Both the position numbers and the translations under genes were made by a program. Of a stretch of 64,000 nt of DNA, positions 5,191-59,384 are shown one piece after another. Under the pieces are notes generated by a model that saw only the letters and a program-made list of their open reading frames with translations, was not told where the DNA came from and made no database searches. The DNA comes from Candidatus Woesebacteria bacterium (lineage in GTDB: Bacteria; Patescibacteriota; Microgenomatia; UBA8517). How positions within the stretch are numbered: position 1 is the stretch's first letter; each line of letters opens with the position of its first letter. Where the stretch lies: assembly GCA_013374855.1 (NCBI GenBank), contig CP055308.1, positions 337,833 through 401,832 on the forward strand. The letters run 5' to 3'.

Positions 5191-5197
5191 TTTTTAA

Positions 5198-14480: not shown

Positions 14481-14662
14481 GCAATTTAGAGGTAGTTCTA
14501 TCTATGTGAATGAAATTTGGAGATCATTCTAAAGTTGAAAATTAAGATTTTTTAGAGTTTTAACTTATGACTTATAATATAATTTAATTTTTACTTTTGA
14601 GTTGATATTCCACTTTCTAGAATTTTTAAGTTGTGGTTTTATTCTTTGAATTCTATGGGGTC

Positions 14663-14699
14663 TTGACAAGTTTTAGCACTCATATTATTATTCTGCTAA
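14663..14699 (+). promoter_or_regulatory. Sigma-70-like promoter (TTGACA...TATTAT) overlapping a CIRCE-like HrcA operator (TTAGCACTC-N9-TTCTGCTAA), upstream of hrcA.
   Basis: TTGACA is at about 14663-14668. The left CIRCE half TTAGCACTC is a perfect match; the right half matches GAGTGCTAA at 6 of 9 positions. An AAGGAGG RBS precedes the ATG at 14714. Confidence 0.6.
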
Positions 14700-14713
14700 A
14701 GGAGGATTTGTAT

Positions 14714-15439
14714 ATGTCTGATGTGCTAACTGCAAGACAAACTCAAATTCTTAAGGCTTTGATTGATGAGTATATAGAAACGGCAGAGCCTGTTGGGTCG
14801 GAGGTTCTTGAAAAGAAATACAACCTTGACGTATCCTCAGCCACAATAAGAAATGAAATGGCTGATCTTACTAAGATGGGCTATCTTAGACAGCCTCATA
14901 CTTCGGCTGGTAGAATGCCTACTTCGAAGGCAATGAAATTTTATATAAGCCAGCTTATGGAGGAAAAGAAAATGAGCTTAGCTGATGAAATTAAAGTTAA
15001 GGAAAAGGTGAGTGAAGTAAAAGATAATATAGATGAACTTATGGATGAAATGGTCCACAGTTTGGCTGAGAAGACATCATCTCTTTCTGTTGGGGTGGTT
15101 GATGATGGTAGAAACTGGGTTGCTGGTTTGCCCTACATTTTTAATAATCCTGAATTCAGAGATTTAAACTTGTGTGCAGGTGTTTTTTCATTTCTTGACG
15201 AAGAAGAGAGGCTTCTTGATTTGTTTTTCCAAAGGTTTCTTGGCAGTTCGCCAGTTGAAGTTTTATTTGGAGATGAGCTTGGTTTTCCTTATCTTGAGCC
15301 TATTGGAATAGTGGCTACTCACTTTAATATAAAAGGGCAAAGAGGCGCCTTGGGTGTTATAGGTCCAATGCGTCTGAGTTATCCTTATGTTGTACCACTT
15401 CTTCGTTATTATGGTAGTGTTGTAGAGGAGGTAGTTTGA
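14714..15439 (+). CDS. hrcA: Heat-inducible transcription repressor HrcA. The start was moved to the internal ATG that follows the RBS.
   Basis: The product reads MSDVLTARQTQILKALIDEYIETAEPVGSEVL. It heads an operon with grpE and dnaK. Confidence 0.85.
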   Translation: MSDVLTARQTQILKALIDEYIETAEPVGSEVLEKKYNLDVSSATIRNEMADLTKMGYLRQPHTSAGRMPTSKAMKFYISQLMEEKKMSLADEIKVKEKVSEVKDNIDELMDEMVHSLAEKTSSLSVGVVDDGRNWVAGLPYIFNNPEFRDLNLCAGVFSFLDEEERLLDLFFQRFLGSSPVEVLFGDELGFPYLEPIGIVATHFNIKGQRGALGVIGPMRLSYPYVVPLLRYYGSVVEEVV

Positions 15440-18216: not shown

Positions 18217-18243
18217 TTTAGCAGTCAACTTGACCAAGTGCTA
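18217..18243 (+). promoter_or_regulatory. CIRCE (HrcA operator) TTAGCAGTC-N9-AAGTGCTAA upstream of clpB-dnaJ, embedding a TTGACC -35-like hexamer.
   Basis: Each half matches the consensus TTAGCACTC-N9-GAGTGCTAA at 8 of 9 positions. It lies about 45 nt upstream of the clpB start. Confidence 0.65.
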
Positions 18244-18286
18244 AATGTGATGTAATATCAGTTTTGTATTAGAATAAATAAAGTCT

Positions 18287-20437
18287 ATGGATGAGAGTTT
18301 GCAAAATCTGTTTAAAGCTCCTGATCCAAAGGAGGCGTTGGAGAAATACACTCTGAATCTGACAGAGGAGGCTCGTCGTGGCAAACTTGACCCTGTTATT
18401 GGCCGCGATGCTGAAATAAGAAGAGTGATGCAAATTTTATCGCGGAGGATAAAAAACAATCCTGTTTTGATAGGTGACCCGGGTGTTGGAAAAACAGCAA
18501 TTGTGGAAGGGTTGGCTTTAAGAATTGCAGCAGGCGAGGTCCCGGAGACTTTAAGGGGAAGAGAGCTTTTAGTCTTGGATTTTGCACTTCTTGTTGCGGG
18601 CACAAAGTTCAGAGGCGAATTTGAGGAAAGATTAAAGGCGGTTATCAAAGGAATTGAGGAAGGAGAAGGAAAGTATATTGTTTTTATTGATGAGCTTCAT
18701 ATATTGGTTGGTGGTGGACAGGCAGAAGGTGCCGTTGATGCGGCAAATATTTTAAAGCCTTCTCTTGCGCGGGGGACATTGCGCTTGATTGGCGCAACAA
18801 CAATTGAGGAATATAGAAAATATGTTGAAAAAGATGCGGCACTTGCCCGGCGTTTTCAGACAGTCTTGGTTGAAGAGCCTACAGTTGAAGACACAATTGC
18901 AATTTTACGGGGAATTAAAGATAAATACGAACTTCACCATGGAATAAGAATAACAGATGATGCGTTAATTGCTGCCGCTACCCTTTCGGATCGTTATATC
19001 ACTAACAGATTTCTACCGGATAAGGCGATAGATTTGATGGATGAGGCAGCGGCCTCAATAAGAATAGAAACAGAAAGTATGCCCTCCGAGCTTGATCTAA
19101 TGAAGCGTGAGTTGACGCGACTTGAGATAGAAAAAACTGCGCTAAAAAGGGAAAAGACAAGAGAAACACAAGAAAAACTCTCCTTTATTGAGGAGAAAAT
19201 TAGGAAGTTAAAAGAAGATATCAGCTTGTTTGAGGAAAGGTGGAGGAAGCAGAAGGAAATAATTGAAAAAATAAGGGCAACTCGTCTTGAAGTTGATAGG
19301 TTGAGGCTTGAGCTTGAGAAGGCTGAAAGAGAGGTTAATTTGGAGAAGGCGGCAGAGATTAAGTATGGGAAACTCCCTGTTCTTGAGGAAAAGCTAAAAG
19401 AGTTGCAGAAGGATTGGGATTTGATTCCTGAAAGCGAGCGAGTATTGCGCGAGGAAGTTGGTGAGGAGGATATAGCAAGGGTTGTCTCCAAAGCCACAGG
19501 TATTCCGGTGGGCAGGCTTCTTTCGGGAGAAAACGAGAAGCTAAAGAATCTTGAAGAAAGGTTGAAAGAAAGGGTTATCGGACAAGACGAAGCACTACGG
19601 CTTGTTGCAAATGCAATAAGAAGGTCACGCCTTAATTTAAGAGAGGGTAAGCGCCCTATTGGATCGTTTCTTTTTCTTGGGCCAACGGGTGTTGGTAAAA
19701 CTGAGACAGCTCGTGCTTTGGCTGATGCTGTATTTGACAGTGAGGATGCGATTGTAAGAATTGACATGAGTGAGTACCAAGAAGCGCATACTGTATCTCG
19801 CCTTGTGGGAGCGCCACCCGGGTATGTTGGGTTTGAAGAAGGCGGGCAGTTGACAGAAGCTGTAAAAAGACACCCCTATTCTTTAGTTCTCTTTGATGAA
19901 GTGGAAAAGGCTCATCCGCAAATTTTTAATATATTTTTGCAAATATTGGATGATGGGAGGTTAACCGATGGTAAGGGGGTAACTGTTGATTTTAAAAATA
20001 CGATTATCATAATGACTTCGAACTTGGGTAGCGAGCTTATTAGCCAGTCTTCTGTTAAAAGATGGGATGAAACGAAAAAACAAGTAGAAGCTCTTCTTTT
20101 GAAGTTTTTCCGGCCGGAGTTTTTGAATAGGATTGATCAGGTTGTTGTTTTTAAGCCTTTGGATAGAAGTATTATGGAGAAGATTGCTCAAAAAGAGCTT
20201 GGCAAGATAGGAGAAATACTCTCTAAGCGAGGGATTGATCTTGTTTATGGAAACGAGGCAATTTCCTATTTTGCCAATAAGGGTTATGACCCAGTTTTTG
20301 GGGCGCGCCCATTGAAACGGCTTTTGGAGGAAGAGATTTTGAATGAGGTGGCGATGTTTGAGATAGAAGGTAAACTCAAGAAAGGGAGTCAGTTAAAGCT
20401 TGTGGTAAAAGATGACAAGATATCTATCGTATTATGA
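18287..20437 (+). CDS. clpB: AAA+ disaggregase ClpB, a form lacking the N-terminal domain.
   Basis: The product has two AAA modules ([15 protein letters not shown]; [15 protein letters not shown]) and a middle coiled-coil M-domain. It is 716 aa and begins directly at the NBD1 linker. Confidence 0.9.
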
Positions 20438-26181: not shown

Positions 26182-27237
26182 ATGTCATTTAAAACAAAAA
26201 GAAAGTTAAGTTTTGATATCCTTGGCAAGAATAAGATTGTTTCTCTTCTTTCTGTAATGCTTCTTGTTCTTGGTCTTGGAGCAGGTATTTTTGCTTTAAA
26301 CAGAAGTCTTGAGATGAGAGTTGGTGCAGGAGGGGGTTCTTTAAAACTTCTTTCTTCTTCAAATATCCCCACACAATCAGGCAGCGAATTTACCGTAGAT
26401 GTTTATTTGGATACAGGGGGTATGCAGGTAACAGCTGCTGACATTAAGGTAAGGTACGACAAAAACTTACTGGAAGGAAAAAGTATAACAAACACTGGTT
26501 TTCTGCCTACAAACCTTGTCAATGGAAATGTAGACAACAACAATGGAATAGCCTCTATAGTAATCGGATCAGAACCAACAAATCCCAAATCAGGTAATGC
26601 TGTTATTGCAAAGATGGTATTAAGACTAAAATCCAATCTTCCCCAATCAGGAACAACTATTTCTCTGGATAGATCAAGCGCTGTTGCTGCTATTGGAATG
26701 GAAGGGAATATAATTTCAACTTACACTGACCTTCTGGTAGCCCCCCCAACCCCTACGCAGGTACCTGCACCCACTTCGTCACCTCGTCCTACTAGCCTAC
26801 CTACCTCAACACCTGTTACACCGGGCCCCACTTCTATTCCATTTAATCCGGTCATAGAGGAAACTGTTCTTGATAAGTTCTTCCTGACTCTTAAAGGATC
26901 TGGTCTTGCTAGTCAAAATGGTGAGAGTGTGACGGTCAAGGTGAGGTATTTGGTTCAAGAGATGCCTAACAAGAAGCTCCTGGATCTTATTAGACCAAAA
27001 ACTTCCTGGAAAGAGCACACAGGTACTTACCCTGTTGTCTCTGAGGCTGGAAAGCAGGTTATTCGCATACCGGCAGATAACGTTCCTGGAATAACATTAA
27101 GAAGTGGTTGGGTAAATGTTTACATAAATGGAAAACAAGCAAAAATTATTTGGGGAGGTGGTGGTTGGGAAAACCCTCCAATGCCACAACCAAAGCCTCC
27201 AAAGAGGCCTTGGTGGAAATTGAGATGGTGGAACTAG
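26182..27237 (+). CDS. Membrane-anchored cohesin-like domain protein with a variant N-module TM-LNRSLEMRVGAGGG, a PT-rich linker and a C-terminal domain.
   Basis: The 351-aa product contains SGSEFTVDVYLDTGGMQVTAADIKVRYDKNLLEG...GNAVIAKMVLRLKS, matching the cohesin type-I pattern (YD..LE, GxxxIAxxxxK). The domain lies at about 26359..26737. The C-terminus ends PPMPQPKPPKRPWWKLRWWN. Confidence 0.6.
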   Translation: MSFKTKRKLSFDILGKNKIVSLLSVMLLVLGLGAGIFALNRSLEMRVGAGGGSLKLLSSSNIPTQSGSEFTVDVYLDTGGMQVTAADIKVRYDKNLLEGKSITNTGFLPTNLVNGNVDNNNGIASIVIGSEPTNPKSGNAVIAKMVLRLKSNLPQSGTTISLDRSSAVAAIGMEGNIISTYTDLLVAPPTPTQVPAPTSSPRPTSLPTSTPVTPGPTSIPFNPVIEETVLDKFFLTLKGSGLASQNGESVTVKVRYLVQEMPNKKLLDLIRPKTSWKEHTGTYPVVSEAGKQVIRIPADNVPGITLRSGWVNVYINGKQAKIIWGGGGWENPPMPQPKPPKRPWWKLRWWN

Positions 27238-28459: not shown

Positions 28460-29893
28460 ATGAAGACACAAGAAGAAACATTAAAGAGACCACCGGTGGT
28501 TGCCGTTTTGGGCCATGTTGATCACGGAAAAACCTCCCTTCTTGATGCGATAAGAAAGACTAATATCCAAGCAAAAGAAGTGGGGGGAATTACCCAGAGA
28601 ATAGGGGCCTCTGTTGTTAAGACTGATTCAGGAAGAGATGTTGTCTTTATAGACACTCCGGGACACGCTGCGTTTTCTAAGATGCGCTCATGTGGGGTCT
28701 CAGCTTCGGATATTGCCATTTTGGTTGTTGCAGCAGACGACGGTGTAATGCCTCAGACAAAAGAGTCAATTGAATATATAAGGGAAACGAATACTCCTTT
28801 CATAGTTGCTATTACAAAAGTGGATTTACCGTCAGCAAAAGTCGATGTTGTCAAAATGCAACTGTCGAAAGAAGAAATTTTGTTGGAGGGCGAAGGAGGA
28901 GATACTCCCTTTATTCTTGTTTCTTCGAAGACAGGGCAAGGAATAAAAGAGCTGCTTGATGTGATTTTGCTCCTTTGGGATTTGGACGATCGAGGTTTGG
29001 TAAACAATGGTGGGCTTAAAGCAGTAGTTGTAGAGACCAGTCTTACTAAGGCAGGGCCGTCTGTTTCGGTAGTAGTAAAAGAAGGAGTCTTGAGACTGAA
29101 ACAAGAGATTTTTGCAGGGACTGAGAAAGCGAGGGTGAGGGGTTTGATTGATGCTTATGGCAAGCCAGTGAGCGAAGTAAGAGCAGGATACCCAGCCCTG
29201 ATCTTGGGATTTGAGAAGCTCCCCCCTGTAGGTTGCTTGGTTTGTGATAAGATTTTGAGCTCTTCTGTTGTGCAGAATAGTTTGGAAGACAGATATCACC
29301 TTTCTTCTCAGAAGAAGAGCAAGCTAAACGCCATTTTTAAGGCGGAATCTCAAGGGGCGCTTGAGGCAGTTTTGTCAAGTATCCCAGAAGGCGTCTCGGT
29401 AATTGATTTTGGTGTTGGAGAGGTTACAAAGAATGACATCTTGCTTGCAAAGAGCACAGATTCTTTTATTTTTACATTTGGTGTTAAGTTGAGAAGCGAA
29501 GTGGTCAAACTTTCTGAAGCGGAAGGAGTGAAAATTGAGAATTTTGAGATTATTTATAGACTGGTTGAGAGAATCGAGGAAATCTTGTCTAAGAATGAGG
29601 AGAAAATTTTGGGCAAGGCTCAGATTTTGGCAGAGTTTCCTTTTGAAGACAAAAGGGTAGCAGGATGTAAGGTCTTGTTTGGGGAAATTAGCAAAAATGA
29701 TAGGCTCTTGTTAAAGCGAGGAGAAAATGTCTTGGGCGAAGTCAGGGTGCTGTCATTAAAGAAACAGAAAAGTGAGGTTGATAAGGTAACCCAGGGTGAG
29801 GAGTTTGGGATTCTTTTTGTGCCACAGCTTGATTTTAAGGTGCAAGATGTGTTAGTATTGGTCGCCCCTGCCAGTAATTTAGATGGAAAATGA
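28460..29893 (+). CDS. infB: Translation initiation factor IF-2 (a short form with the G domain and C-terminal domains only).
   Basis: The product reads [20 protein letters not shown]...FIDTPGHAAFSKMR...ADDGVMPQTKESI. It is 477 aa. Confidence 0.9.
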   Translation: MKTQEETLKRPPVVAVLGHVDHGKTSLLDAIRKTNIQAKEVGGITQRIGASVVKTDSGRDVVFIDTPGHAAFSKMRSCGVSASDIAILVVAADDGVMPQTKESIEYIRETNTPFIVAITKVDLPSAKVDVVKMQLSKEEILLEGEGGDTPFILVSSKTGQGIKELLDVILLLWDLDDRGLVNNGGLKAVVVETSLTKAGPSVSVVVKEGVLRLKQEIFAGTEKARVRGLIDAYGKPVSEVRAGYPALILGFEKLPPVGCLVCDKILSSSVVQNSLEDRYHLSSQKKSKLNAIFKAESQGALEAVLSSIPEGVSVIDFGVGEVTKNDILLAKSTDSFIFTFGVKLRSEVVKLSEAEGVKIENFEIIYRLVERIEEILSKNEEKILGKAQILAEFPFEDKRVAGCKVLFGEISKNDRLLLKRGENVLGEVRVLSLKKQKSEVDKVTQGEEFGILFVPQLDFKVQDVLVLVAPASNLDGK

Positions 29894-30797
29894 CCTTAGT
29901 GCTTACTTTGATAGAGCAACCTCTGTATTTATAGTTCTTCCTAAAAAACCATATTTTGATCAGGTTGCTGCCGGACTTTCTCTTTATCTTTCATTGTTGG
30001 GGAAAAAAGAGGTTTCTGTTATTTGTCCAAGCCCAATGCTTGTTGAGTTTAATCGTCTGGTGGGGGTGGACAAAGTCGTACAGCATCCTGTAGAAAGAAA
30101 CTTGGTAATCCGTTTTGCTGGGTATAACGCGATGGATATAGAAAAGGTTAATTCCGAGGTAAAAGATGAGGAGCTTTACCTTGTGGTTGTTCCTCAACCA
30201 AACGTTAAGCCTCCTACCAAAGAGCAAGTAAGCCTTTCATACAGTGGGGTGTCTTGTGATTTAATTGTTTTGGTGGGCGGGGCTGATGAATCGCACTTCC
30301 CTATTTTGGCAGATCCAGAGGTGTTGGGGATTCAAAAGATTCATGTGGGCCTTCGTGACATTCGCCAAACTAAAGATAACAACATCCTCTCTTATGTTAG
30401 GAGTTCGTCTTCTGTTTCAGAGTTGGTGGCGGATATTATTCGTGAGCTTGGGCTTGAAGTTGATGTGGACACGGCGTCAAATCTAATAGCAGGGATTGAG
30501 GTTGGTAGTAATCATTATACATCTGAGGGAGTGACCGCTAACACGTTTCAGACGATAGCTGATCTTTTAAGGCTCGGTGGTAGGAGAACGAATTTGTTGT
30601 TTAGATCGACATCTTCTGTGGGGCAGTCTGGCGAGACTCTTCTTGACAAGACGGGCGGTGATAAGTTTTTACGAGGAAATCTTACCCCCGAGAGTGATAT
30701 ACAAGACAAAGGTAAGAGAGAGGCCCCGGAGGCAGATGAAAATCCGCCATCAGACTGGCTCGCCCCCAAGATATTTAAAGGAACATCGGTTAGCTAA
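29883..30797 (+). CDS. NrnA-like DHH/DHHA1-fold protein with degenerate catalytic motifs (likely a pseudoenzyme).
   Basis: The product is colinear with NrnA but the motifs are replaced: DxD becomes KKPYFDQ, the motif-II Asp becomes LVIRFAGYN, DHH becomes KIHVGLRD, GDTG becomes GIEVGSNH, and no GGGH is present. It sits in the canonical nusA-infB-(rbfA)-nrnA-(truB)-rpsO-pnp position. Confidence 0.55.
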   Translation: MENDLSAYFDRATSVFIVLPKKPYFDQVAAGLSLYLSLLGKKEVSVICPSPMLVEFNRLVGVDKVVQHPVERNLVIRFAGYNAMDIEKVNSEVKDEELYLVVVPQPNVKPPTKEQVSLSYSGVSCDLIVLVGGADESHFPILADPEVLGIQKIHVGLRDIRQTKDNNILSYVRSSSSVSELVADIIRELGLEVDVDTASNLIAGIEVGSNHYTSEGVTANTFQTIADLLRLGGRRTNLLFRSTSSVGQSGETLLDKTGGDKFLRGNLTPESDIQDKGKREAPEADENPPSDWLAPKIFKGTSVS

Positions 30798-30894: not shown

Positions 30895-31203
30895 ATGGCG
30901 TTAACACCAGAGGAAAAAAAGAAAGTAATAGAAAGGTTTGCAAGAGAAAAAGGAGACACAGGTTCTCCTGAGGTGCAAATAGCTCTTCTTTCTTCTCAGA
31001 TAGAAAAACTAGTTAGTCACCTCAAAAGTCATCCTAAGGATGTTCATTCAAGGCGCGGCCTTTTGTCTATGATTGCCAAAAGAAGAAGGCTTCTTGTTTA
31101 TCTTAAAAGAAAGGATGAAGCGAGGTATCTCTCCTTGCTTGATAAACTAAAGGCAGAAAAAAAGGATTTAATTGATGAAAACTCTAAAAAGAATTCGAAG
31201 TGA
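30895..31203 (+). CDS. rpsO: 30S ribosomal protein S15.
   Basis: The product reads [51 protein letters not shown]. Confidence 0.9.
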
Positions 31204-33400
31204 GACAGAATTTGGGGGTAAGAAGTTAATTCTTACTTCGGGTGATTTGGCATTTCAGTCGTCAGGTGCCGTAATGGCTCAGTATGGTGAGACTGTAGTG
31301 CTTGCTGCTGTGGTTTTTTCTCCTCTTAGGGAAAAGCTTGGCTATTTTCCACTTTCAGTTGAGTATCAGGAAAGACTTTATGCTGGAGGCAAAATTAAAG
31401 GCAGTCGTTGGGTTAAAAGAGAAGGAAGGCCATCAGATGATGAGATCTTAAGCGGCCGTCTTATAGACAGAAGCATTAGACCACTTTTCCCCAAGGAATT
31501 TTCAGATTACGAGGTTCAGGTTACAGTGACGGTATTGTCCGTCGATCTTGAAAATAGCCCTGATATTGTTGCTGCCATTGCCGCATCTGCTGCTATTGAA
31601 GTTTCGCCAATTCCATGGGCAGGACCCGTGTCAGTTATTCGTCTGGGGCTTAAAGATGGGAAATTTTTGATTAACCCCACAACGTCAGAGCTTGAGTTGT
31701 CAAGTCTTGATTTGGTTGTTTCTACGACGGAAAACTCAGTTGTTATGATAGAAGCTGGGGCAAAGGAAGTTCCTGAAGAAAAGGTGGTCGAAGGTGTAGA
31801 GTTTGCAGTTAAGGAAGGCAAAAAACTTATTGAGTTTATTTCTGATTTTGCTAAAAAAGCAAGAAGCAAAGAAAAAATTAATCTCAGAGTTCTAGATGAC
31901 AAGGCATTTTTAGATAGAGTTGATAAGATAGCTGGCAGGGATATAGAAGAAATGGTAGTCAAGCTTGCTAGGAAAGAGATTAGTTATACCGAGGTTGATC
32001 AATATAAGAATTCCCTTGTTGAAAAGTTTGGGGAGGAAGAAAGACAACACCTGCACGAAGCTTTTGAGAAATTGATGTCCTTGAAATTTAGAAAAATGGT
32101 TTTATCAGGCAAAAGGCCTGATGGGAGGAGAAATGATGAGATAAGGCCACTTTCTGTTGAAGTTTCTGTCTTGCCACGCACTCATGGTTCTGCAATTTTT
32201 CGGCGGGGGCATACACAGGTCTTGTCAATAGCCACACTTGGTGCTCCGTCCTTGGAGCAATTAATCGAGACGGCCGAAGGCGAGGAGACAAAGCGTTATA
32301 TGCACCACTATGTAATGCCTCCTTATTCTTCGGGAGAAACAGGTAGAATTGGTGTTCCCTCAAGAAGAGAGATAGGACACGGTGCTTTGGCAGAAAGAGC
32401 ACTTTTGCCGGTTATCCCTCCTGAAGAGGATTTTCCTTACACGATAAGGGTTGTTTCTGAAGTTTTGTCGTCAAATGGTTCAACATCAATGGCTTCCACT
32501 TGCGGATCTACTCTTGCTCTAATGGATGCGGGTGTTCCTATTAAACGGCCAGTTTCCGGTATTGCTATGGGACTTGTGGTTGAAGATGAGAAAAATTTTG
32601 TTGTTTTGACAGACATTGCGGGAATTGAAGATGGAGCAGGAGATATGGATTTTAAGGTTGCAGGAACAGAAAAAGGTATAACCGCATTGCAGCTTGATGT
32701 TAAGACTTTAAAGCTTGTTCCATCTATTTTGTCCTCTGCTTTGGCTCAGGCAAAAAGGGCTCGTGGACAAATTCTTGAAAAAATGCTTTCTGTGATAGGG
32801 TCACCCCGGAAGGAAATTTCAATTCACGCACCCAAGATTAGGATGATTAAAATTCCACAAGATAAAATAGGCGATCTTATAGGTCCTGGAGGAAGAATGA
32901 TAAGAAATCTTATTGCCGAAACTGGGGCTCAAATTGAAGTAGAGGAGGATGGAACGGTGAATATTAGTAGTACCGATCCTGAGGCTGTAGAGGAAGCTAT
33001 CTTGAAGGTTGAACAATTAACTAAGGAAGCAAAGGTGGGTGAGATTTATGAAGGAACTGTTAAAAGAATAGAGCCATACGGTGCTTTTGTTGAGATTTGG
33101 CCTGGGAAAGATGGTATGGTTCATATTTCTGAGATGAGTAATGATTATGTTAATGACCCTCATGATGTTTTGAAATTGGAAGACAAGATCAAGGTAAGAG
33201 TTAAGGGGATAGATGAGATGGGTAGAATTAGCCTTTCCATGAAACTAGACGAGAAAGGTGAATCGCAAAGAAATGATTTTCCAAGAAAAGGAAACTGGCG
33301 TGAAAGTAGAAGCAAGACTAGAATAAAGAGAAGTTCTGGTGGGCCTCATTTTCCTACAAGCAGGCTCATTGAGGAATTTGAGAAGAAAAAGGGGTATTAA
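31172..33400 (+). CDS. pnp: Polynucleotide phosphorylase (PNPase).
   Basis: The product has two RNase PH domains, a KH domain and an S1 domain ([30 protein letters not shown]). Its start overlaps the rpsO 3' end. Confidence 0.95.
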
Positions 33401-33445: not shown

Positions 33446-34552
33446 ATGGCTGCTGTTTCCACAGATGATATTAGTGTTTATTCGCATAAAAATTTGGACG
33501 AGCCTCTTCCTGTTAGAGATGTAGAGCTTTTGAGACTTAAGTCTTTGGTTGATTCTTCCGATTGCCCTGATGAATTGAAAGAAAGAATAAACACAAGGTT
33601 GGGCCAACTTGATAGGTTGGTGAATTCTCCTTCATTTCTTGATGAGTATGACAGAATTTCCCGCTACATCGATTGGGTTATCAAAATCCCTTGGAACAAG
33701 ACCACTGAGGATATTTTAGATTTGGAAAGAGCCAAGAGAGTTTTAGATAGTCATCACTATGGTCTTGAGGAAATAAAAAATAGGATTCTTGAGTATATAT
33801 CGGTGATGAAATTAAAATCAGAAAAAGGCGAAAAAGATGAAGTTCTTAAAGCGCCCACCCTTTTTTTTGTAGGTTTAGTGGGTACAGGAAAAACGACCAT
33901 TGCTCCATCTATTGCCGAGGCTTTAGGAAGAAAGTTTGCTCGTATTCCTTTTGGTGGAATGGGAGACCCCCTTGACCTTCGTGGGCAATCGAGACTTCAT
34001 CTGGAATCAGAACCCGGTAAAATAATAAAAGCTTTAATTTCTGTTCAAAGCAAAAATCCGGTGATTCTACTTGATGAGATAGATCGTGTGACAGAACAGG
34101 GGAGAAGCTCTATTATGGGTGTTTTAGTTGAGCTTTTGGATCCAAAACAGAATTATGCCTTTGTTGACCATTATGTTGATTATCCGGTTGATCTTTCTCA
34201 GGTTCTGTTTATCGCAACTGCAAACAACACACATAATATTGCTACCGCAGTGATGGACAGGCTTGAGCCTATAAGCATGCCATCTTATTCGGATTCAGAG
34301 AAGATCGCTATTGCTGTTAATTATGTATTGCCTGAAAAGTTAAGATCCGCAGGTATACCAGAGGGGGTAATAAATGTGGCAGATGATGTTTGGCCAATTG
34401 TCGTTCGCCCGCTTGGGTATGACGCTGGTATTAGAACTTTGGAAAGAACAATAGATGGCTTAGTGCGTAAAGTAGCTAGACTTCTGGTTGAAGGAAAAAT
34501 TACCTCTATTAGAATAACAAAGGAAAATGCAAAGGAGTTTCTACCTCAATAA
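33446..34552 (+). CDS. Lon-like AAA+ ATPase module with no N-terminal LAN domain and no C-terminal Ser-Lys protease domain.
   Basis: The 368-aa product reads LDSHHYGLEEIKNRILEYISV...FFVGLVGTGKTTIAPSIAEALGRKFARIPFGGMGDPLDLRGQSR...PVILLDEIDRV...LDPKQNYAFVDHYVDYPVDLSQVLFIATANN...MDRLEP, colinear with the LonA ATPase core. It ends about 30 aa after the alpha-helical lid. Confidence 0.7.
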   Translation: MAAVSTDDISVYSHKNLDEPLPVRDVELLRLKSLVDSSDCPDELKERINTRLGQLDRLVNSPSFLDEYDRISRYIDWVIKIPWNKTTEDILDLERAKRVLDSHHYGLEEIKNRILEYISVMKLKSEKGEKDEVLKAPTLFFVGLVGTGKTTIAPSIAEALGRKFARIPFGGMGDPLDLRGQSRLHLESEPGKIIKALISVQSKNPVILLDEIDRVTEQGRSSIMGVLVELLDPKQNYAFVDHYVDYPVDLSQVLFIATANNTHNIATAVMDRLEPISMPSYSDSEKIAIAVNYVLPEKLRSAGIPEGVINVADDVWPIVVRPLGYDAGIRTLERTIDGLVRKVARLLVEGKITSIRITKENAKEFLPQ

Positions 34553-34558
34553 TATGTT

Positions 34559-35200
34559 ATGGATAAAGCTTTGGAATTAAAAGAGTTGAAAAGTAGAGCG
34601 CTTGAAGATAAAAATTTACCCTTAAAGAGCGGTGCAACGAATCTTGTTTTTGGAGTTGGAAACCCAAATGCTGAAATTCTTTTTATTGGAGAAGGTCCTG
34701 GTTATTGGGAAGATGTGAAAGCAGAGCCTTTTGTGGGACCTGCGGGGAAACTTCTAGATAAGCTTTTGGAATTAATAAAAATAAAAAGAAGCGATGTTTT
34801 TATTACTAACGTGGTTATGCATCGTCCCCCAAACAACCGAGACCCATTACCTGAAGAAATAGAAGCTTATAAACCTTATTTAGATGGGATAATAAGAATT
34901 ATTTCACCCCGTGTGATTGTGACACTGGGAAGGTTTTCTATGGCAAAGTTTTTGCCTAATGCCTTGATCAGTCGTGTTCACGGCAAGGATTTTTCTGTTT
35001 ATTTTGATGGTCTTAATATTGTGGTTGTACCAATGTATCATCCTGCTGCTGCTTTAAGAAATGGAGATATTATGATAAAAATAAGGGAAGATTTTTTGGG
35101 TCTGCCAAAAATCTTGGAGAAAGCACGATCGGTAAGGGATAAGGTTTATTTGGAAAAAAATAAAGAGGTTTTTGAACAAAAACAGATGGAACTATTTTAA
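34559..35200 (+). CDS. Uracil-DNA glycosylase, family 4/5-like.
   Basis: The product reads LVFGVGNPNAEILFIGEGPGYWED...GPAGKLLDKLL...VVPMYHPAAALRN. No Fe-S Cys cluster is evident. Confidence 0.7.
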   Translation: MDKALELKELKSRALEDKNLPLKSGATNLVFGVGNPNAEILFIGEGPGYWEDVKAEPFVGPAGKLLDKLLELIKIKRSDVFITNVVMHRPPNNRDPLPEEIEAYKPYLDGIIRIISPRVIVTLGRFSMAKFLPNALISRVHGKDFSVYFDGLNIVVVPMYHPAAALRNGDIMIKIREDFLGLPKILEKARSVRDKVYLEKNKEVFEQKQMELF

Positions 35201-35203
35201 ACT

Positions 35204-36850
35204 ATGGTTAGGTTTATAGCTTTATCTGGAACAACTGATGTTACGGAGAATTTTTATGTTTACGAGACAGAGAGAGATTTGATAGTTGTTGACTGCGGCG
35301 TTGGTTTTCCGGAACCGGATATGTTGGGAGTTGACCTTGTAATTCCTGATTTTTCTTATGTTCGTGATAAGAGAAATAAATTAAGGGGAATAATTATTAC
35401 CCACGGCCATGAGGACCACATTGGAGCGTTGCCATTTCTTATTTCTGAAGTTAGAGCACCTATTTTTTCAACAAAGCTGGTTGCCGGTTTTATTGGTCTT
35501 AAGATGCAGGATTATGGAATATCGAATTTCAGGGTAAATGTTTTTGATCCTGAAAAAGATAGCATCACCCTTGGAGATTTCAAAATATCACCATTTAGGA
35601 CATCTCATTCTATTCCAGACAGCGTTGGCTTTGTTATCGATACTCCTGAAGGGAAAATGGTTCATGCGGCAGATTATAAATTTGATTGGACACCGGTTGA
35701 CGGACGACCCTTTGACATATCAAGACTTTCTTTGCTTTGTTCAAACGGGATTTTAGCTGTCCTTTCTGATTGCCTGGGATCAACATCGCCGGGTTATACC
35801 GAAAGTGAAAAGAATATAGAGGCAAGAATCGGAAGCATAGTTTCGGAGGCAAGGGGTAGAGTATTTTTTACCACCATATCCTCAAATATTTCAAGAATAA
35901 GACAAGCTTTAAATGTAGCTTCTCGGACAAGAAGGAAAGTGGCAATTCTTGGCAAGTCTATTGATTCAAAGGTAAAGGTTGCCAGTCAATTGGGTTATCT
36001 TGATCTGCCGACAAGGTTGGAGAGAAGTGTTAAAGATCTTGAAAGACTGCCGGATGATAAGGTTATGATAATTATTTCAGGGAGTTATGGTCAGCCTGGT
36101 AGTTCCCTTTACCGTTTGGCATTGGGGGAGCATGACCTTTTGAAACTCAAGGAGGGTGATGTTGTAATTTTTTCTTCAGATCCCGCTCCTCCTGGGTCTA
36201 AGGCCAATGTTGACTTTGTTGTTGATAGATTAATTGAAAAAGGAGCTATTGTTCACTATTATGATATTCAGGAAGACTTGCATGTTTCAGGGCACGGAAG
36301 CCAAGAGGATATTAAACTTCTTCTTTCTTTAACCAGACCTAAGTTTGCTATACCCATAGGAGGAACCATTAGGCATATGAGGGCTTTTTCTGATCTTGCT
36401 CAGAGTGTGGGCATAAGTAAGAATTCAGTTTTTGAACTCCACGATGGGGAATCGGTTGAATTTAGAGATGGACGTGCCGTTAAAGGAGCAAAGTTTGAGA
36501 CAAGAAATGTTTTAGTTGATGGTTTGGGAATCGGAGATGTTGGAGAGGTTGTTCTGCGGGATAGAAATGTTCTTGCTCGCGAGGGAGTGGTTATAATTCT
36601 TTTGCAATTTGACGGATCTAAGAAAAAGATTGTAAATCAACCTGAAATTATAAGCAGAGGTTTTGTCTTTGAAAGAAAGCAAAAAGTTTTGTTGGAGAAA
36701 GCCTCTTCTGATTTTTTGTTTTTCTTGAGGAAAAGAATTAATTTAGACAGAAAATCTTTGAAGGATTTGGCAGTTGATTTTTTTGAGCGGTATTTCTTCG
36801 AAAAAACTGGCCGTCGGCCGATGGTGTTGCCCTTGGTGGTAGAAGTTTGA
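35204..36850 (+). CDS. rnj: Ribonuclease J (metallo-beta-lactamase/beta-CASP).
   Basis: The product reads IITHGHEDHIGALPFL, and the beta-CASP and C-terminal domains are conserved. Confidence 0.9.
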   Translation: MVRFIALSGTTDVTENFYVYETERDLIVVDCGVGFPEPDMLGVDLVIPDFSYVRDKRNKLRGIIITHGHEDHIGALPFLISEVRAPIFSTKLVAGFIGLKMQDYGISNFRVNVFDPEKDSITLGDFKISPFRTSHSIPDSVGFVIDTPEGKMVHAADYKFDWTPVDGRPFDISRLSLLCSNGILAVLSDCLGSTSPGYTESEKNIEARIGSIVSEARGRVFFTTISSNISRIRQALNVASRTRRKVAILGKSIDSKVKVASQLGYLDLPTRLERSVKDLERLPDDKVMIIISGSYGQPGSSLYRLALGEHDLLKLKEGDVVIFSSDPAPPGSKANVDFVVDRLIEKGAIVHYYDIQEDLHVSGHGSQEDIKLLLSLTRPKFAIPIGGTIRHMRAFSDLAQSVGISKNSVFELHDGESVEFRDGRAVKGAKFETRNVLVDGLGIGDVGEVVLRDRNVLAREGVVIILLQFDGSKKKIVNQPEIISRGFVFERKQKVLLEKASSDFLFFLRKRINLDRKSLKDLAVDFFERYFFEKTGRRPMVLPLVVEV

Positions 36851-36892
36851 TCTTCATTAAACAACTTTTGTTTTCTTTGGTATATAATTAAC

Positions 36893-39013
36893 TTGCAGAT
36901 GCCAAAAATTAAGAGATTGAAAAGAGCAAAGCAGAAGAAGTCTTTTGAATTTAAGTTAAAGAGAGCAACAGTTTACTCTATCGTTCAGCTTTTAATGTTT
37001 TCTTTTACAGTTCTTTTGATTATTTCTTTCTCTCGTCAGGGTAAGCTGTTGGTGATTGTGAACGATTTGTTGATGAATTATTTTTCTTGGACTTCAGTGT
37101 TTCTCCCATTTATTTTCTTAGTTATGGGGCTTTTATTCTCCCGCTTTAAGACCCCTCTTTCCCAGCCTAATGTAGTGGTAGGTTCTATTCTTTTTTTTAT
37201 TTCAATTATGGGTTTGACTAAAGCGGGGGTTTTAGGTAGGAGTCTTTGGGAGGGAATTGAGCTTTTGTTGACAAAGCCGGGAGCTTTTTTTTCTCTTCTA
37301 ACAGGTTCACTTGTTGGTTTAGTAGTTCTTCTTAACATTCCGTTTGAGGTAGCTTTGTCTTTTGTTTTAGATACTTTTAGAGTCCTAAGGGATTCTCTTT
37401 TTGGATCAAAGATAGGAGTGAAGAAGGGGTTATTAAATAAAAGGGGGAACATAAAAATTGGTGGTTTAGTACCCTCAGTCAATACAACCGCAAGTGCAGA
37501 AACAGTTCAAAGTCAGGGTGGTGCAATGTCTGGTTTGGGTTTAAGTTCCACGTCGGTTATAACAAATCAACCTGGAAGCAATGAACCTTGGAGATATCCT
37601 GACATTTCTATTTTTTCAACTACACAATCCGGTGTTGCTGATAGAGGAGATGTCAATGAAAATGCGGCTATTATAGAAAAAACATTGGATGATTTTGGTA
37701 TATATGCAAAAGTTGTTGAAGTTAATTATGGGCCAGCGGTTACCCAGTATGCCATTCAGGTTGCCTCCGGCACAAAGCTTTCAAAAATTACGGCACTAGA
37801 GCGAGATTTGGCTTTAGCTCTGGCCGCTCCGACAGGTACTATAAGAATCGAAGCACCCATTCCTGGCAAAAGCTTGGTTGGTATAGAACTTCCCAATCGC
37901 AAACCAGAGTTTGTTTCAATACGTCAGATGCTTGAATCTGATGTTATGGCAACAAACCCTTCCAAACTTTTGGTTGCATTAGGTCTTGATGTAACCGGTA
38001 AGCCTGTTGTAGCTGATTTGGGAAAGATGCCTCACGTTTTAATAGCAGGACAGACTGGTGCAGGTAAGTCAGTTTGTCTTAATACTTTTCTGGCATCTCT
38101 TCTTTTCCGATCATCTCCGTCTGAAGTAAAACTTGTGCTTGTAGATCCTAAAAGAGTCGAGATGGTCCACTATACAGGTATTCCTCATCTTTTAACGCCT
38201 GTAATCACTGATTATAACGAGGTTATTAATGTTTTGCGGTGGGTTGTAGACGAAATGGAAGCAAGGTACAAAAAGTTTGCTGAAGTGGGAGCCAGAAATA
38301 TTGATACCTACAACGAGATGTCTGGGTTCCAATCTATGCCATATATAGTAGTAGTGGTTGATGAGCTTGCTGAGATAATGCTTTTTTCACCGGTTGAGGT
38401 AGAAGAAAAAATTACAAGGATTGCCCAGAAGAGTCGTGCTACAGGAATTCATATGGTTCTTGCCACCCAGAGACCTTCGGTTAATGTTATTACCGGGCTT
38501 ATTAAGGCTAATATTCCCTGTCGTATAGCCTTTAAAGTTGCGTCGCAAGTTGACTCACGTGTTATTCTTGATCTACCTGGTGCAGAAAAACTTTTAGGTA
38601 GAGGAGATATGCTTTATTTGCCTCCAGATCAGGCAAAACCAATTCGTATTCAAGGTGCTTTTGTCTCCGATAAAGATATTCTTAATCTTACCTCTTACCT
38701 TAAAAATTTGGGTGTTACCCCTCAGTATGTAGAAGAAGCTACTAAAGCACCGGCAGGTGGAAGCTCAGTTAGTTTTCAGTCAGGGGGTAAGATGGACGAG
38801 AGATTTGCAGAAGCGGTGAGGCTTGTTTGCCAGTATGATAGGGCGTCAACTTCTTTATTACAGAGAAGAATGTCTATTGGTTATTCTAGGGCAGCCAAAA
38901 TTATTGATCAACTAGAAGAGGCGGGAGTGATTAGCTCACCTCAGGATGGTTCTAAAAGAGAAGTTTTAATAAGTGATGCTGAGGATTTTCTCTCATCTTT
39001 TGGTAAAATGTAG
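36893..39013 (+). CDS. ftsK: DNA translocase FtsK/SpoIIIE.
   Basis: The product has N-terminal TM helices, the motor domain VLIAGQTGAGKSVCLN...VVVDELAEIM...ATQRPSV, and a C-terminal gamma winged-helix (LLQRRMSIGYSRAAKIIDQLEEAGVIS). Confidence 0.9.
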   Translation: MQMPKIKRLKRAKQKKSFEFKLKRATVYSIVQLLMFSFTVLLIISFSRQGKLLVIVNDLLMNYFSWTSVFLPFIFLVMGLLFSRFKTPLSQPNVVVGSILFFISIMGLTKAGVLGRSLWEGIELLLTKPGAFFSLLTGSLVGLVVLLNIPFEVALSFVLDTFRVLRDSLFGSKIGVKKGLLNKRGNIKIGGLVPSVNTTASAETVQSQGGAMSGLGLSSTSVITNQPGSNEPWRYPDISIFSTTQSGVADRGDVNENAAIIEKTLDDFGIYAKVVEVNYGPAVTQYAIQVASGTKLSKITALERDLALALAAPTGTIRIEAPIPGKSLVGIELPNRKPEFVSIRQMLESDVMATNPSKLLVALGLDVTGKPVVADLGKMPHVLIAGQTGAGKSVCLNTFLASLLFRSSPSEVKLVLVDPKRVEMVHYTGIPHLLTPVITDYNEVINVLRWVVDEMEARYKKFAEVGARNIDTYNEMSGFQSMPYIVVVVDELAEIMLFSPVEVEEKITRIAQKSRATGIHMVLATQRPSVNVITGLIKANIPCRIAFKVASQVDSRVILDLPGAEKLLGRGDMLYLPPDQAKPIRIQGAFVSDKDILNLTSYLKNLGVTPQYVEEATKAPAGGSSVSFQSGGKMDERFAEAVRLVCQYDRASTSLLQRRMSIGYSRAAKIIDQLEEAGVISSPQDGSKREVLISDAEDFLSSFGKM

Positions 39014-57209: not shown

Positions 57210-59384
57210 ATGTCCCAAGTTCAAGCGACTAAGAAAAAGGCAGCTTTGGTTTTTACGGCCACAAAGGACCGCAATCTTCCTATGGAAAAAATTAGAAACA
57301 TAGGAATTATTGCCCATATTGATGCTGGAAAAACTACAACCACAGAAAGAATTCTTTTTGAGACAGGGAGAACATATCGTTTGGGTTCTGTAGATGAAGG
57401 GACAACCGCTACTGACTGGATGGAACAGGAAAGAGAGAGGGGAATTACAATTGTATCGGCTGCTATTACCACTTTTTGGACTCTCAAAAAACAGACTTCA
57501 GTGGGTGAAGGTCAGTATAGGATTAATATTATTGATACTCCAGGCCATATTGATTTTACCGCGGAAGTTGAGAGATCGCTTCGAGTTTTAGATGGCGCTG
57601 TGATGGTTTTTGATGGTAGAACTGGGGTTGAAAGCCAGTCTGAAACTGTTTGGCATCAGGCTGATAAGTACAATGTACCAAGAATATGTGTTTTGAATAA
57701 ACTTAATTTAATAGGTGCTGATTTTGAAGGCAGCATCAAATCTATTCAGGAGAGACTAGGTGCGAATGCCGCTCCTGTTGTGTATCCGATTGGGATAGAA
57801 CATAGCCTAAGGGGGGTTGTTGATTTGGTGAAAATGAAAGCTTATACCTATTCTTCAATAGAAGATAACAAACTAATCGAAGAGGAGGTTTCTTCTGATT
57901 TGTTGGAAATTTGTCAAAGATACAGAAGCGAACTTTTGGAAAAGGTTGCAGAGTTTGATGATGATGTTTTGGCAAAATATTTAAATGGCGAGGAACTTAA
58001 AGAGGAAGAAATTAAGCGGGCAATTAGAAAAGGAGTAGTAAGCGGTAAGTTTTTCCCCATATTTGGAGGTGATAACCGAACTGCTACTGTTCAACTTCTT
58101 CTTGATGGTGTTGTTGAGTATTTACCATCTCCTGTAGATCTTCCGCCTGTAAAGGGAATTAATCCTAAGACAGGTCAGGAAGAATCAAGGGAATCAAAAT
58201 ATGAAGCTCCATTTTCAGCTTTGGCTTTTAAAGTAATGACCGACCCTCATGTTGGTCGATTGGTTTATCTTAGAGTTTATTCTGGAATTATTAAAACAGG
58301 ACAGCAGGTTCTAAACACAACGAAATCTGTTAATGAGAGAATTGGAAAGCTAGTTCTTCTACATGCTGACCAGAGGGAATTAATAGAAGAAGCTTATGCG
58401 GGAGAAATAGTGGCTGCGGTAGGCCTTAAGGATACAACAACGGGTCATACTTTATGCGATCCTGCAAATCCAATAGTTTTGGAATCTATAAAATTTCCTG
58501 ATCCTGTTATTTCTTTGGCTATAGAACCAGCTACCAAATCTGATCAGGAGAAAATGGGAATTGCTCTTAGCAAGCTTCTAGATGAGGACCCTACTTTTCG
58601 AGTTAAATCCAATCAAGAAACAGGACAAACAATAGTTTCTGGAATGGGTGAACTTCAGCTTGAAATTCTAGTTGACAGAATGAAGAGGGAATTTGGGGTA
58701 GAGGCAAAGATGGGCGCGCCACAGGTTGCTTATAGGGAAACTATTAAAAGGACAGGTAAAGGGGAAGGAAAATATATTAGGCAGACTGGAGGTAGAGGAC
58801 AATATGGACATTGTTTTGTTAGAATCGAGCCTTTGGGTAGAGGCGAGGGGATTAAGTTTGTTTCAGAAATAAAAGGTGGAGCGATTCCAGCAGAATTTAT
58901 CCCAGCGGTCGAAAAAGGTGTAAAAGAGAAGTTAGAGAACGGAATTCTTGCAGGGTATCCGATAACTGATATTGCAGTTTATCTTTATGACGGAACATAT
59001 CACGAGGTTGATTCTTCGGAAATTGCTTTCAAGATAGCAGGTTCTATGGCAGTGGAACAGGCGGCACGTCAGGCCGATCTTGTTCTTCTTGAGCCGATAG
59101 TAAAAGTTGAAGTGGCAACTCCCAAAGAGTTTATGGGTGATATTATAGGTGATTTATCTTCCAAGAGAGCACAAATTCAAGGTACAGAGGAAAAGGGTGG
59201 AATGACCTACATTTATGCTTTTGCTCCGCTGGCAGAACTCTCTGGTTATGTGACAAAGATCAGGTCTATTTCTCAAGGAAGAGCTGTTCCCTATATTGAA
59301 CCAAGTCATTATGAGGAAGTTCCTAAGAATATTGCAGATCAGATAATAGAAAAGGCTGGGAAAGTGGTAATGCCAAGAAGCTAA
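57210..59384 (+). CDS. fusA: Elongation factor G. The true start may instead be the internal Met about 23 codons downstream (MEKIRNIGIIAHIDAGKTTT).
   Basis: The product has the GTPase motifs and EF-G domains II-V. Confidence 0.95.
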   Translation: MSQVQATKKKAALVFTATKDRNLPMEKIRNIGIIAHIDAGKTTTTERILFETGRTYRLGSVDEGTTATDWMEQERERGITIVSAAITTFWTLKKQTSVGEGQYRINIIDTPGHIDFTAEVERSLRVLDGAVMVFDGRTGVESQSETVWHQADKYNVPRICVLNKLNLIGADFEGSIKSIQERLGANAAPVVYPIGIEHSLRGVVDLVKMKAYTYSSIEDNKLIEEEVSSDLLEICQRYRSELLEKVAEFDDDVLAKYLNGEELKEEEIKRAIRKGVVSGKFFPIFGGDNRTATVQLLLDGVVEYLPSPVDLPPVKGINPKTGQEESRESKYEAPFSALAFKVMTDPHVGRLVYLRVYSGIIKTGQQVLNTTKSVNERIGKLVLLHADQRELIEEAYAGEIVAAVGLKDTTTGHTLCDPANPIVLESIKFPDPVISLAIEPATKSDQEKMGIALSKLLDEDPTFRVKSNQETGQTIVSGMGELQLEILVDRMKREFGVEAKMGAPQVAYRETIKRTGKGEGKYIRQTGGRGQYGHCFVRIEPLGRGEGIKFVSEIKGGAIPAEFIPAVEKGVKEKLENGILAGYPITDIAVYLYDGTYHEVDSSEIAFKIAGSMAVEQAARQADLVLLEPIVKVEVATPKEFMGDIIGDLSSKRAQIQGTEEKGGMTYIYAFAPLAELSGYVTKIRSISQGRAVPYIEPSHYEEVPKNIADQIIEKAGKVVMPRS

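Follow-up and report, generated by a model that had tools for sequence, protein, structure and literature searches.

We examined a 64,000-nucleotide stretch of the genome of a Candidatus Woesebacteria bacterium (contig CP055308.1; hereafter the window), and within it one gene that encodes a stand-alone AAA+ ATPase of the LonA type. Lon is the textbook AAA+ protease, with its motor and its peptidase joined in a single polypeptide. The gene is an open reading frame (ORF) that starts with ATG and stops with TAA, and its product of 368 amino acids contains the LonA-type module, that is, a three-helix bundle followed by the alpha/beta subdomain and the Lon lid (Table 1). An earlier note, written from the sequence letters alone, had described a Lon-type AAA+ core without a protease domain and without the N-terminal substrate-binding (LAN) domain, and had offered two explanations, a degraded Lon or a repurposed stand-alone unfoldase. 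It had also placed the gene between pnp and a gene for uracil-DNA glycosylase, and we found this arrangement as described. The pnp gene ends exactly 45 nt before the ATPase gene, which leaves no room for a LAN domain, and udg begins 6 nt past the stop codon and encodes an intact protein of the UDG superfamily (PF03167, 1.8e-30). According to Pfam, the context of the ATPase gene in the window consists of housekeeping genes.

Table 1. Positions in the window of the ATPase gene, of the elements within it and of its flanking genes. Fractions give the number of short-form family members that carry the residue or motif, out of 50 that were compared column by column with 34 LonA controls.
Feature	Position	Strand	Details and evidence
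Stand-alone LonA-type AAA+ ATPase gene	33446..34552	+	368 aa and TAA stop; ORF list, Pfam, PDB sequence matches, structure prediction
N-terminal tail, residues 1-24, predicted disordered	33446..33517	+	pLDDT <50 for residues 1-16; columns gapped in most of 120 homologues
Pre-AAA helical bundle, residues 25-103, equivalent to LonA NTD-3H bundle	33518..33754	+	predicted helices 26-36, 42-56, 64-80, 93-103; aligns to LonA ~245-320
Walker A, GLVGTGKTT	33872..33898	+	K149 and T150 in 50/50
Pore loop 1, LRGQSRLHLESEPG	33977..34018	+	alignment to B. subtilis Lon and column counts
Walker B, VILLDEID (D210, E211)	34061..34084	+	50/50; Arg follows
Pore loop 2 region, RVTEQGRSSIM	34085..34117	+	LonA aromatic and RGDP motif gone
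Sensor-1 Asn260 (LonA N473)	34223..34225	+	50/50
Trans-acting arginine finger Arg272 (LonA R484)	34259..34261	+	50/50
Lid (alpha) subdomain, residues 280-368, ending ...NAKEFLPQ at the LonA ATPase-protease linker	34283..34549	+	Pfam Lon_lid 302-351
Sensor-2 Arg330 (LonA R542)	34433..34435	+	50/50
rpsO (30895-31203) and pnp (ORF listed 31172-33400)	30895..33400	+	upstream; Pfam RNase_PH/KH/S1
udg (34559-35200), RNase J gene rnj (35204-36850), ftsK (36893-39013)	34559..39013	+	downstream; Pfam

Domain content, fold and boundaries

Pfam assigned to the product an AAA domain (residues 140-275) and the lid, and nothing else; the hidden Markov models (HMMs) Lon_C and LON_substr_bdg gave no match to the 368 residues. 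The NCBIfam model TIGR00763 'lon' (endopeptidase La) was matched over positions 258-569 of 795 with 315 bits, and missed its cutoff of 608, since neither end of the model is represented. In a phmmer search of PDB sequences, residues ~25-366 corresponded to LonA residues ~245-580 in the Lons of B. subtilis, M. taiwanensis, E. coli, Y. pestis and human (E 1e-69 to 1e-73), and the alignment to the solved Lons stopped at the linker between ATPase and protease. An AlphaFold2 monomer model calculated from a 24-sequence family alignment had a predicted local distance difference test score (pLDDT) of 87.8 and a predicted template modelling score (pTM) of 0.81. Searched with Foldseek, the predicted structure matched LonA and LONP1 ATPase modules at template modelling (TM) scores of 0.77-0.83, and the isolated Lon AAA+ domain 6n2i at a target-normalised TM of 0.90 over 338 residues. 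The extent of the phmmer alignment and the match to 6n2i indicate that the boundaries of the natural protein are almost those of the laboratory 'A-domain' construct.

In place of the N-terminal region of LonA (LAN/PUA-like domain plus coiled coil), just ~24 disordered residues precede the three-helix bundle, and most orthologues, at 348 aa, do without this tail. No insertion lies between Walker A (residues 143-151) and Walker B (206-213), unlike the membrane-anchor insertion of LonB. A Lon protease is one in which an A domain precedes, in the same chain, a P domain with a Ser-Lys dyad (PMC9569914). By this definition, and also by the NCBIfam cutoff, the short form is a descendant of the LonA ATPase module and not a Lon protease.

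Conservation and descent of the short form

An ORF that stops at a domain boundary could in itself be a recent truncation or a pseudogene, its protease part deleted or frameshifted, and this was the first of the two explanations in the earlier note. Seven full-length Lons were compared by tblastn (E<=10) with all frames of the 64-kb window, the 3' flank of the gene included, and gave no match to an N-domain or a protease domain; they matched solely the ATPase ORF and, weakly and generically, the AAA regions of clpB (18287-20437). When the N and C domains of 12-13 full-length Lons were compared separately with 669,061 bases (the window together with 54 related loci of Patescibacteria), they gave no match at E<=0.1 save one. 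This lone match, with E=0.064 at 57798-58007, falls within a 724-aa ORF that is EF-G-like by its position among conserved translation genes (the ORF was not scanned), and was treated as noise. A degraded Lon is thus at odds with the lack of a remnant in any frame and with an intact udg 6 nt after the stop.

The same short form is found well beyond the window. An initial homology search yielded 120 clusters of 332-386 aa, 72 of them exactly 348 aa long, at 69-90% identity; all 120 contain AAA and Lon_lid only and, where named, belong to Woesebacteria or the 'Patescibacteria group'. A search of 1.84 billion cluster representatives added protease-less forms at 41-59% identity, one of them from Candidatus Dojkabacteria. 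In P0156, the protein from Dojkabacteria, the last 196 residues failed to align to a Lon protease domain. Orthologues in relatives were found by a scan in which each GTDB species was represented by a single genome; 46 Patescibacteria genomes carry the short-form gene, with labels that include Woese-, Shapiro-, Ames-, Levy-, Davies-, Roizman-, Pace-, Nomura- and Saccharibacteria and others. The ORFs in these genomes span ~341-472 aa (one was called longer via an upstream start codon), and all stop 0-8 codons past the lid; the 34 matches of the same scan outside the Patescibacteria are full-length LonA, with 190-250 further residues after the ATPase module. The added N- or C-terminal length of the longer family members is low-complexity sequence rich in Q/P/S/T/N that holds no domain, and for hidden domains in these longer relatives Pfam gave nothing beyond AAA and Lon_lid. 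As a separate observation on these genomes, many species-representative metagenome-assembled genomes (MAGs) among loci L009-L052 clearly have Patescibacteria gene content, with the short form in the same synteny, and are titled 'uncultured Gammaproteobacteria', 'Pseudomonadales' or even 'Candidatus Methanoperedens' (L036); the titles are probably taxonomic mislabels from bulk MAG submissions.

The 50 short proteins and the 34 LonA modules separated from each other in 50/50 neighbour-joining bootstraps over 337 well-occupied columns. Mean identity is 52% within the short-form family (minimum 38%) and 39% to LonA. This monophyly and these identity levels indicate that the loss of the flanking domains is old and happened once. 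Between orthologues at 69-80% amino-acid identity, the proportion of nonsynonymous differences (pN) was 0.13-0.22 and that of synonymous differences (pS) 0.77-0.83; pS is at saturation even in the comparison with the most similar locus used, so that the result is stated as pN far below pS and not as a dN/dS ratio. The family is also more acidic than the LonA modules, with a mean isoelectric point (pI) of 5.9 vs 7.6. The short form is an old, strongly conserved family of the ultra-small Patescibacteria (Candidate Phyla Radiation, CPR). An identical boundary in 46 species genomes and >100 protein clusters, a monophyletic clade, invariant catalytic residues (Table 1) and pN far below pS refute the degraded Lon, to which we give almost no credence.

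ATPase site and pore loops

Walker A and Walker B lie where the earlier note had read them. The roles of N473, R484, R542, Y294 and W297 have been described for Y. pestis Lon (PMC7239648), and all three of the sensor and finger residues are invariant in the family, while Y74 (Y294 of Y. pestis Lon) is kept in 47/50 and W77 (W297) in 43/50. D245, the counterpart of LonA E458, is likewise kept, as is the LDPxQN...DHY segment of the pre-sensor-1 (PS1) beta-hairpin. The signature of Walker A itself has shifted, from GPPGVGKTS in LonA (Pro-Pro in 34/34) to GL[VAQ]G.GKT[TS] in the family. Judged from these columns, the nucleotide engine of the AAA+ HCLR clade is under full constraint.

The pore loops present a different picture. 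In LonA, a Tyr followed by Ile/Val in pore loop 1 grips the substrate (PMC7239648). In the window protein H185 takes the place of LonA Tyr398, L186 that of Ile399, and E187/E189 those of Gly400/Met402, and the loop as a whole reads S[RK]xxx[DE][AS]EPG in the family vs RRTY[VI]GA[ML]PG in LonA. The Arg395 position, Arg in LonA, is Ser in 42/50 family members. At the Tyr398 position, where all 34 LonA controls have Tyr, the family has H10 F10 S8 Y5 R3 L3 K3 E3 and others, and the following Ile399 position (Val/Ile in 34/34 LonA) is Pro in 28/50. The Gly of LonA at position 400 is Glu/Asp in 43/50, and the Met/Leu at position 402 is Glu in 48/50. Within the query's own clade, His occupies the Tyr position in 115/121 members and both Glu residues are present in 121/121. 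Pore loop 2 follows the same pattern: position 219 is Phe/Tyr/Trp in 32/34 LonA controls and Ala/Gly/Ser in 43/50 family members. On this alignment, the substrate-contacting surface of LonA is replaced by a different motif that is itself conserved. The second explanation of the earlier note, a repurposed stand-alone unfoldase, therefore stands in part: stand-alone and repurposed are both supported, but unfoldase is unproven, with the substrate-gripping LonA residues of both pore loops replaced.

A Tyr398 position that is unconstrained while the neighbouring acidic residues are fixed, together with a pore loop 2 that lacks an aromatic, could mean that the ring translocates no polymer at all and instead binds and hydrolyses ATP as a switch to clamp, release or scaffold a partner. 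In LonA, the PS1 beta-hairpin, the NTD-3H aromatics and E458 couple the nucleotide state to movement of the pore loops (PMC7239648). The retention of the hairpin, Y74, W77 and D245 suggests that movement of the pore loops is still tied to the ATPase cycle, which counts against a non-threading switch, and we consider this explanation unlikely.

Genomic neighbourhood

In the window, the gaps along the block are 45 nt between pnp and the ATPase gene, 6 nt from there to udg, 3 nt between udg and rnj and 42 nt between rnj and ftsK, and a terminator scan found no terminator-like site among pnp, the ATPase gene, udg and rnj. The counts of this promoter and terminator scan did not exceed the shuffled expectation, and it was used solely for the absence of a terminator-like site from pnp to rnj. 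The downstream genes udg-rnj-ftsK are likely a co-transcribed syntenic block, and rpsO-pnp-[ATPase gene]-udg-rnj-ftsK is probably co-transcribed in the source genome.

Neighbourhoods were counted at 51 orthologous loci. The common block is infB-orf304-rpsO-pnp-[ATPase gene]-(udg)-rnj-ftsK-HTH_25. On the same strand, pnp lies directly upstream at 27/51 loci and within the block at 32; rnj lies downstream at 31/51, directly adjacent at 15, and ftsK downstream at 22/51. Five loci (L016, L018, L025, L030, L058) have sugar-phosphate genes upstream in place of pnp, with udg-rnj still downstream. At eight loci, from Roizmanbacteria and relatives, the ATPase gene is divergent from adjoining groES-groEL genes. 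Conserved neighbours identified by eye are rpe-like, LOG, PfkB, RpiB, metallophosphoesterase and NUDIX genes. One member of the block is uncharacterised: the 304-aa ORF at 29883-30797 (+) between infB and rpsO, in the usual place of rbfA/truB, has no Pfam match, is kept at the infB-rpsO position in 23/51 loci and is a conserved member of the nusA-infB-rpsO-pnp block.

This gene order invites a role in RNA decay, in which the ATPase would act with PNPase and/or RNase J to remodel ribonucleoproteins or regulate the nucleases, much as DEAD-box helicases do in degradosomes. The frequent company of pnp and rnj, the tight spacing without a terminator, and the five loci where pnp leaves and the gene remains with udg-rnj all agree with it. 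Yet the entire infB...ftsK block is conserved, so that the adjacency may be inherited gene order; the eight loci beside groES-groEL place the gene away from both pnp and rnj; and the two fixed acidic residues of pore loop 1, together with the lower pI of the family, argue against a nucleic acid in the pore. On balance a partnership in RNA decay seems doubtful to us.

The adjacency to groES-groEL is a hint of a link to proteostasis. CIRCE (the HrcA operator) was searched for, and none was found before the ATPase gene in the window or in the intergenic regions between groES and the ATPase gene in relatives; heat-shock control of the gene by HrcA is accordingly unsupported. The window does contain CIRCE-like operators elsewhere, at 14673-14699 and 18218-18244, with 3 and 2 mismatches to TTAGCACTC-N9-GAGTGCTAA where 0.04 sites are expected by chance. 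One stands at the start of hrcA (14633-15439) and the other just upstream of clpB, and the two define an HrcA regulon of hrcA-grpE-dnaK and clpB-dnaJ in the source genome.

We also considered a split Lon, in which the ATPase docks on a peptidase from another gene, be it a free-standing Lon_C-like ring or some other self-compartmentalised protease, and feeds substrates to it as ClpX does to ClpP or HslU to HslV. Two-component AAA+ proteases are a precedent, the motor is intact, and the extreme C-terminus is conserved in a form that might serve as a docking tail. Family C-termini (e.g. L011, L016, L020, L029 and L050; 34526-34549 in the window) read N-x-[KR]-x-[FY]-[LIV]-P-[QS] and lie 0-8 residues past the lid. 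Many lineages add a final Tyr or Trp (LPQY, IPQW, LPSY, VPAW), and the query clade ends in LPQ; this conserved end could be a docking tail or the mere stump of the Lon inter-domain linker. Set against a split Lon are the lack of any Lon_C-like sequence in the 669 kb of flanks, the lack of a protease-like gene in the conserved neighbourhood (sequences inspected by eye, not with HMMs), the loss of the hydrophobic and aromatic threading residues from the pore loops, and the fact that no IGF-type loop is evident. We judge a split Lon to be quite improbable.

Comparison with known systems

Compared with LonA (E. coli/Y. pestis, B. subtilis, M. taiwanensis, human LONP1), the short form has the same fold at 37-45% identity over ~340 residues, with the three-helix bundle, an HCLR-type AAA+ domain with LDPxQN and PS1 beta-hairpin, the Lon lid, Walker A and B, sensor-1, arginine finger and sensor-2. 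It differs in lacking the LAN/coiled-coil N region and the S16 protease domain, in its GLxGxGKT Walker A, in its altered pore loops and in being more acidic. The domain 6n2i has nearly the same boundaries, but it is a laboratory fragment of a full-length protease, whereas the short form occurs naturally, is conserved throughout a radiation and has changed pore loops. LonC is described as a Lon-like protease of Meiothermus taiwanensis that does without ATP-powered unfolding (PMC3391209). On that description LonC and the short form are both natural Lon derivatives that have given up one of two activities, and they are mirror images: LonC has kept the protease and has a degenerate ATPase, while the short form has an intact ATPase and no protease. 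More generally, LonB, LonBA and LonC all have a protease domain, unlike the short form, which has no P domain.

ClpX, HslU and ClpB D2 are HCLR-clade rings without a fused peptidase that act as unfoldases or disaggregases. The short form belongs to the same AAA+ clade, and one ClpB is encoded in the same window; however, those proteins have aromatic pore loops and dedicated docking elements or N/M domains, and in the short form no docking loop is recognisable and no aromatic is conserved. The ClpB-type chaperone of the window (+ strand) is itself unusual, with 716 aa only: it matches AAA, AAA_lid_9, AAA_2 and ClpB_D2-small without a Clp_N match, so that its N-terminal domain is apparently missing, and its middle domain may be shortened too. 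An anti-phage defence AAA+ protein was considered for the ATPase gene and rejected; the PADLOC matches were weak, partial and of generic AAA type (best DolB, 28 bits), and the context is housekeeping.

Proteolysis-independent use of a Lon ATPase has a parallel in yeast, where an S-to-A mutant of Pim1 reportedly supports complex assembly (Rep et al. 1996). The likeness is a Lon ATPase that is said to be useful without proteolysis; the difference is that the Pim1 mutant is, by the same account, a full-length enzyme still scaffolded by its N domain and protease ring.

In a side observation outside the window, ~25 of the best 150 cluster representatives carry a single Lon_C domain behind two or three Lon-type AAA+ modules in tandem. 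They include P0121-P0128, P0130, P0132-P0138 and others, for example P0122 (1113 aa, Candidatus Dependentiae, MFC1854773.1), P0121 (1233 aa) and P0124 (1675 aa), and P0153 (1218 aa) has three AAA+ modules and no Lon_C. In several of these proteins the extra modules have degenerate Walker B motifs or pore loops. We know of no description of such multi-AAA Lons.

Proposed function

We favour, with a probability of roughly 0.55, the reading that the gene is a functional, vertically inherited LonA derivative of the Patescibacteria which would act as an ATP-dependent remodeller of proteins or complexes. The N-terminal substrate-binding domain and the C-terminal Ser-Lys protease domain of LonA have been lost, and the three-helix bundle, the alpha/beta subdomain of the AAA+ module and the lid have been kept. 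An invariant trans-acting arginine finger, which is meaningful solely in an oligomer, makes assembly into a ring most likely, and since every catalytic residue is invariant, this ring most likely hydrolyses ATP. By itself the protein would be unable to degrade proteins. Both pore loops have been rebuilt, with loss of the Tyr-Ile/Val 'pincer' and of the aromatic of pore loop 2 and with fixation of two acidic residues ([DE]-[AS]-E-P-G). Canonical threading for degradation is unlikely because no peptidase chamber lies behind the pore and the pincer residues are replaced, and we infer a chaperone-like relic of the Lon motor that remodels its targets, not a canonical unfoldase that threads substrates into a proteolytic chamber.

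Several points weigh against this reading. The chaperone or remodeller role is assigned by analogy. In work on fragments of E. coli Lon, isolated LonA AAA+ fragments reportedly oligomerise poorly without the protease ring. The Tyr398 position is still aromatic (Phe/Tyr) in 15/50 family members and His in 10/50, so that some members may still be able to grip a polypeptide. The synteny with pnp and rnj could indicate RNA metabolism instead.

A bolder version, which we hold to be a long shot, is that the protease-less motor is the sole Lon homologue in a large part of the Patescibacteria and has an essential job independent of proteolysis, possibly as the ATP-driven partner of the PNPase/RNase J machinery of RNA decay, whose genes usually flank it, through its acidic, non-aromatic pore. 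If it were true, these bacteria would be a natural experiment for an essential, proteolysis-independent job of the Lon ATPase.

Annotation and significance

The short form is a conserved, uncharacterised variant of a well-known machine. The earlier note had allowed that the architecture might be a known widespread family. Widespread it is, in genome databases, but a full-text literature search turned up no account of a Lon without its protease, whether in CPR/Patescibacteria or in other organisms. Database labels vary between 'ATP-dependent Lon protease', 'Lon protease', 'AAA family ATPase' and 'hypothetical protein', and IMG, NCBI and UniRef carry Lon-protease names. This is a systematic mis-annotation, and in metabolic reconstructions a Lon-protease label would wrongly credit Patescibacteria with Lon proteolysis.

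A bacterial radiation thus keeps the Lon motor under strong purifying selection, minus the peptidase and the substrate-recognition domain and with the pore loops rewritten. This offers a natural way to approach the chaperone-like activity that Lon may have independently of its protease, long a matter of debate, and shows which parts of the Lon motor serve ATP turnover and which serve threading. Loss of both flanking domains together with a rebuilt pore across a radiation would somewhat surprise Lon specialists, although the function itself is a proposal.

Other features of the window

Just before nusA lies a 351-aa ORF (26182-27237, +) in which Pfam recognises Cohesin (PF00963, 1.4e-08), a surprising domain amid housekeeping genes. 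From ~14.6 kb onward nearly all long ORFs lie on the + strand. The GC skew over 1-64000 is positive in every 2-kb interval save 4001-6000 (-0.05), mostly at 0.15-0.34. An unusual nucleotide disparity between the two strands is reported for a complete Microgenomates genome (PMC7143001), and the skew seen here may be the same phenomenon.

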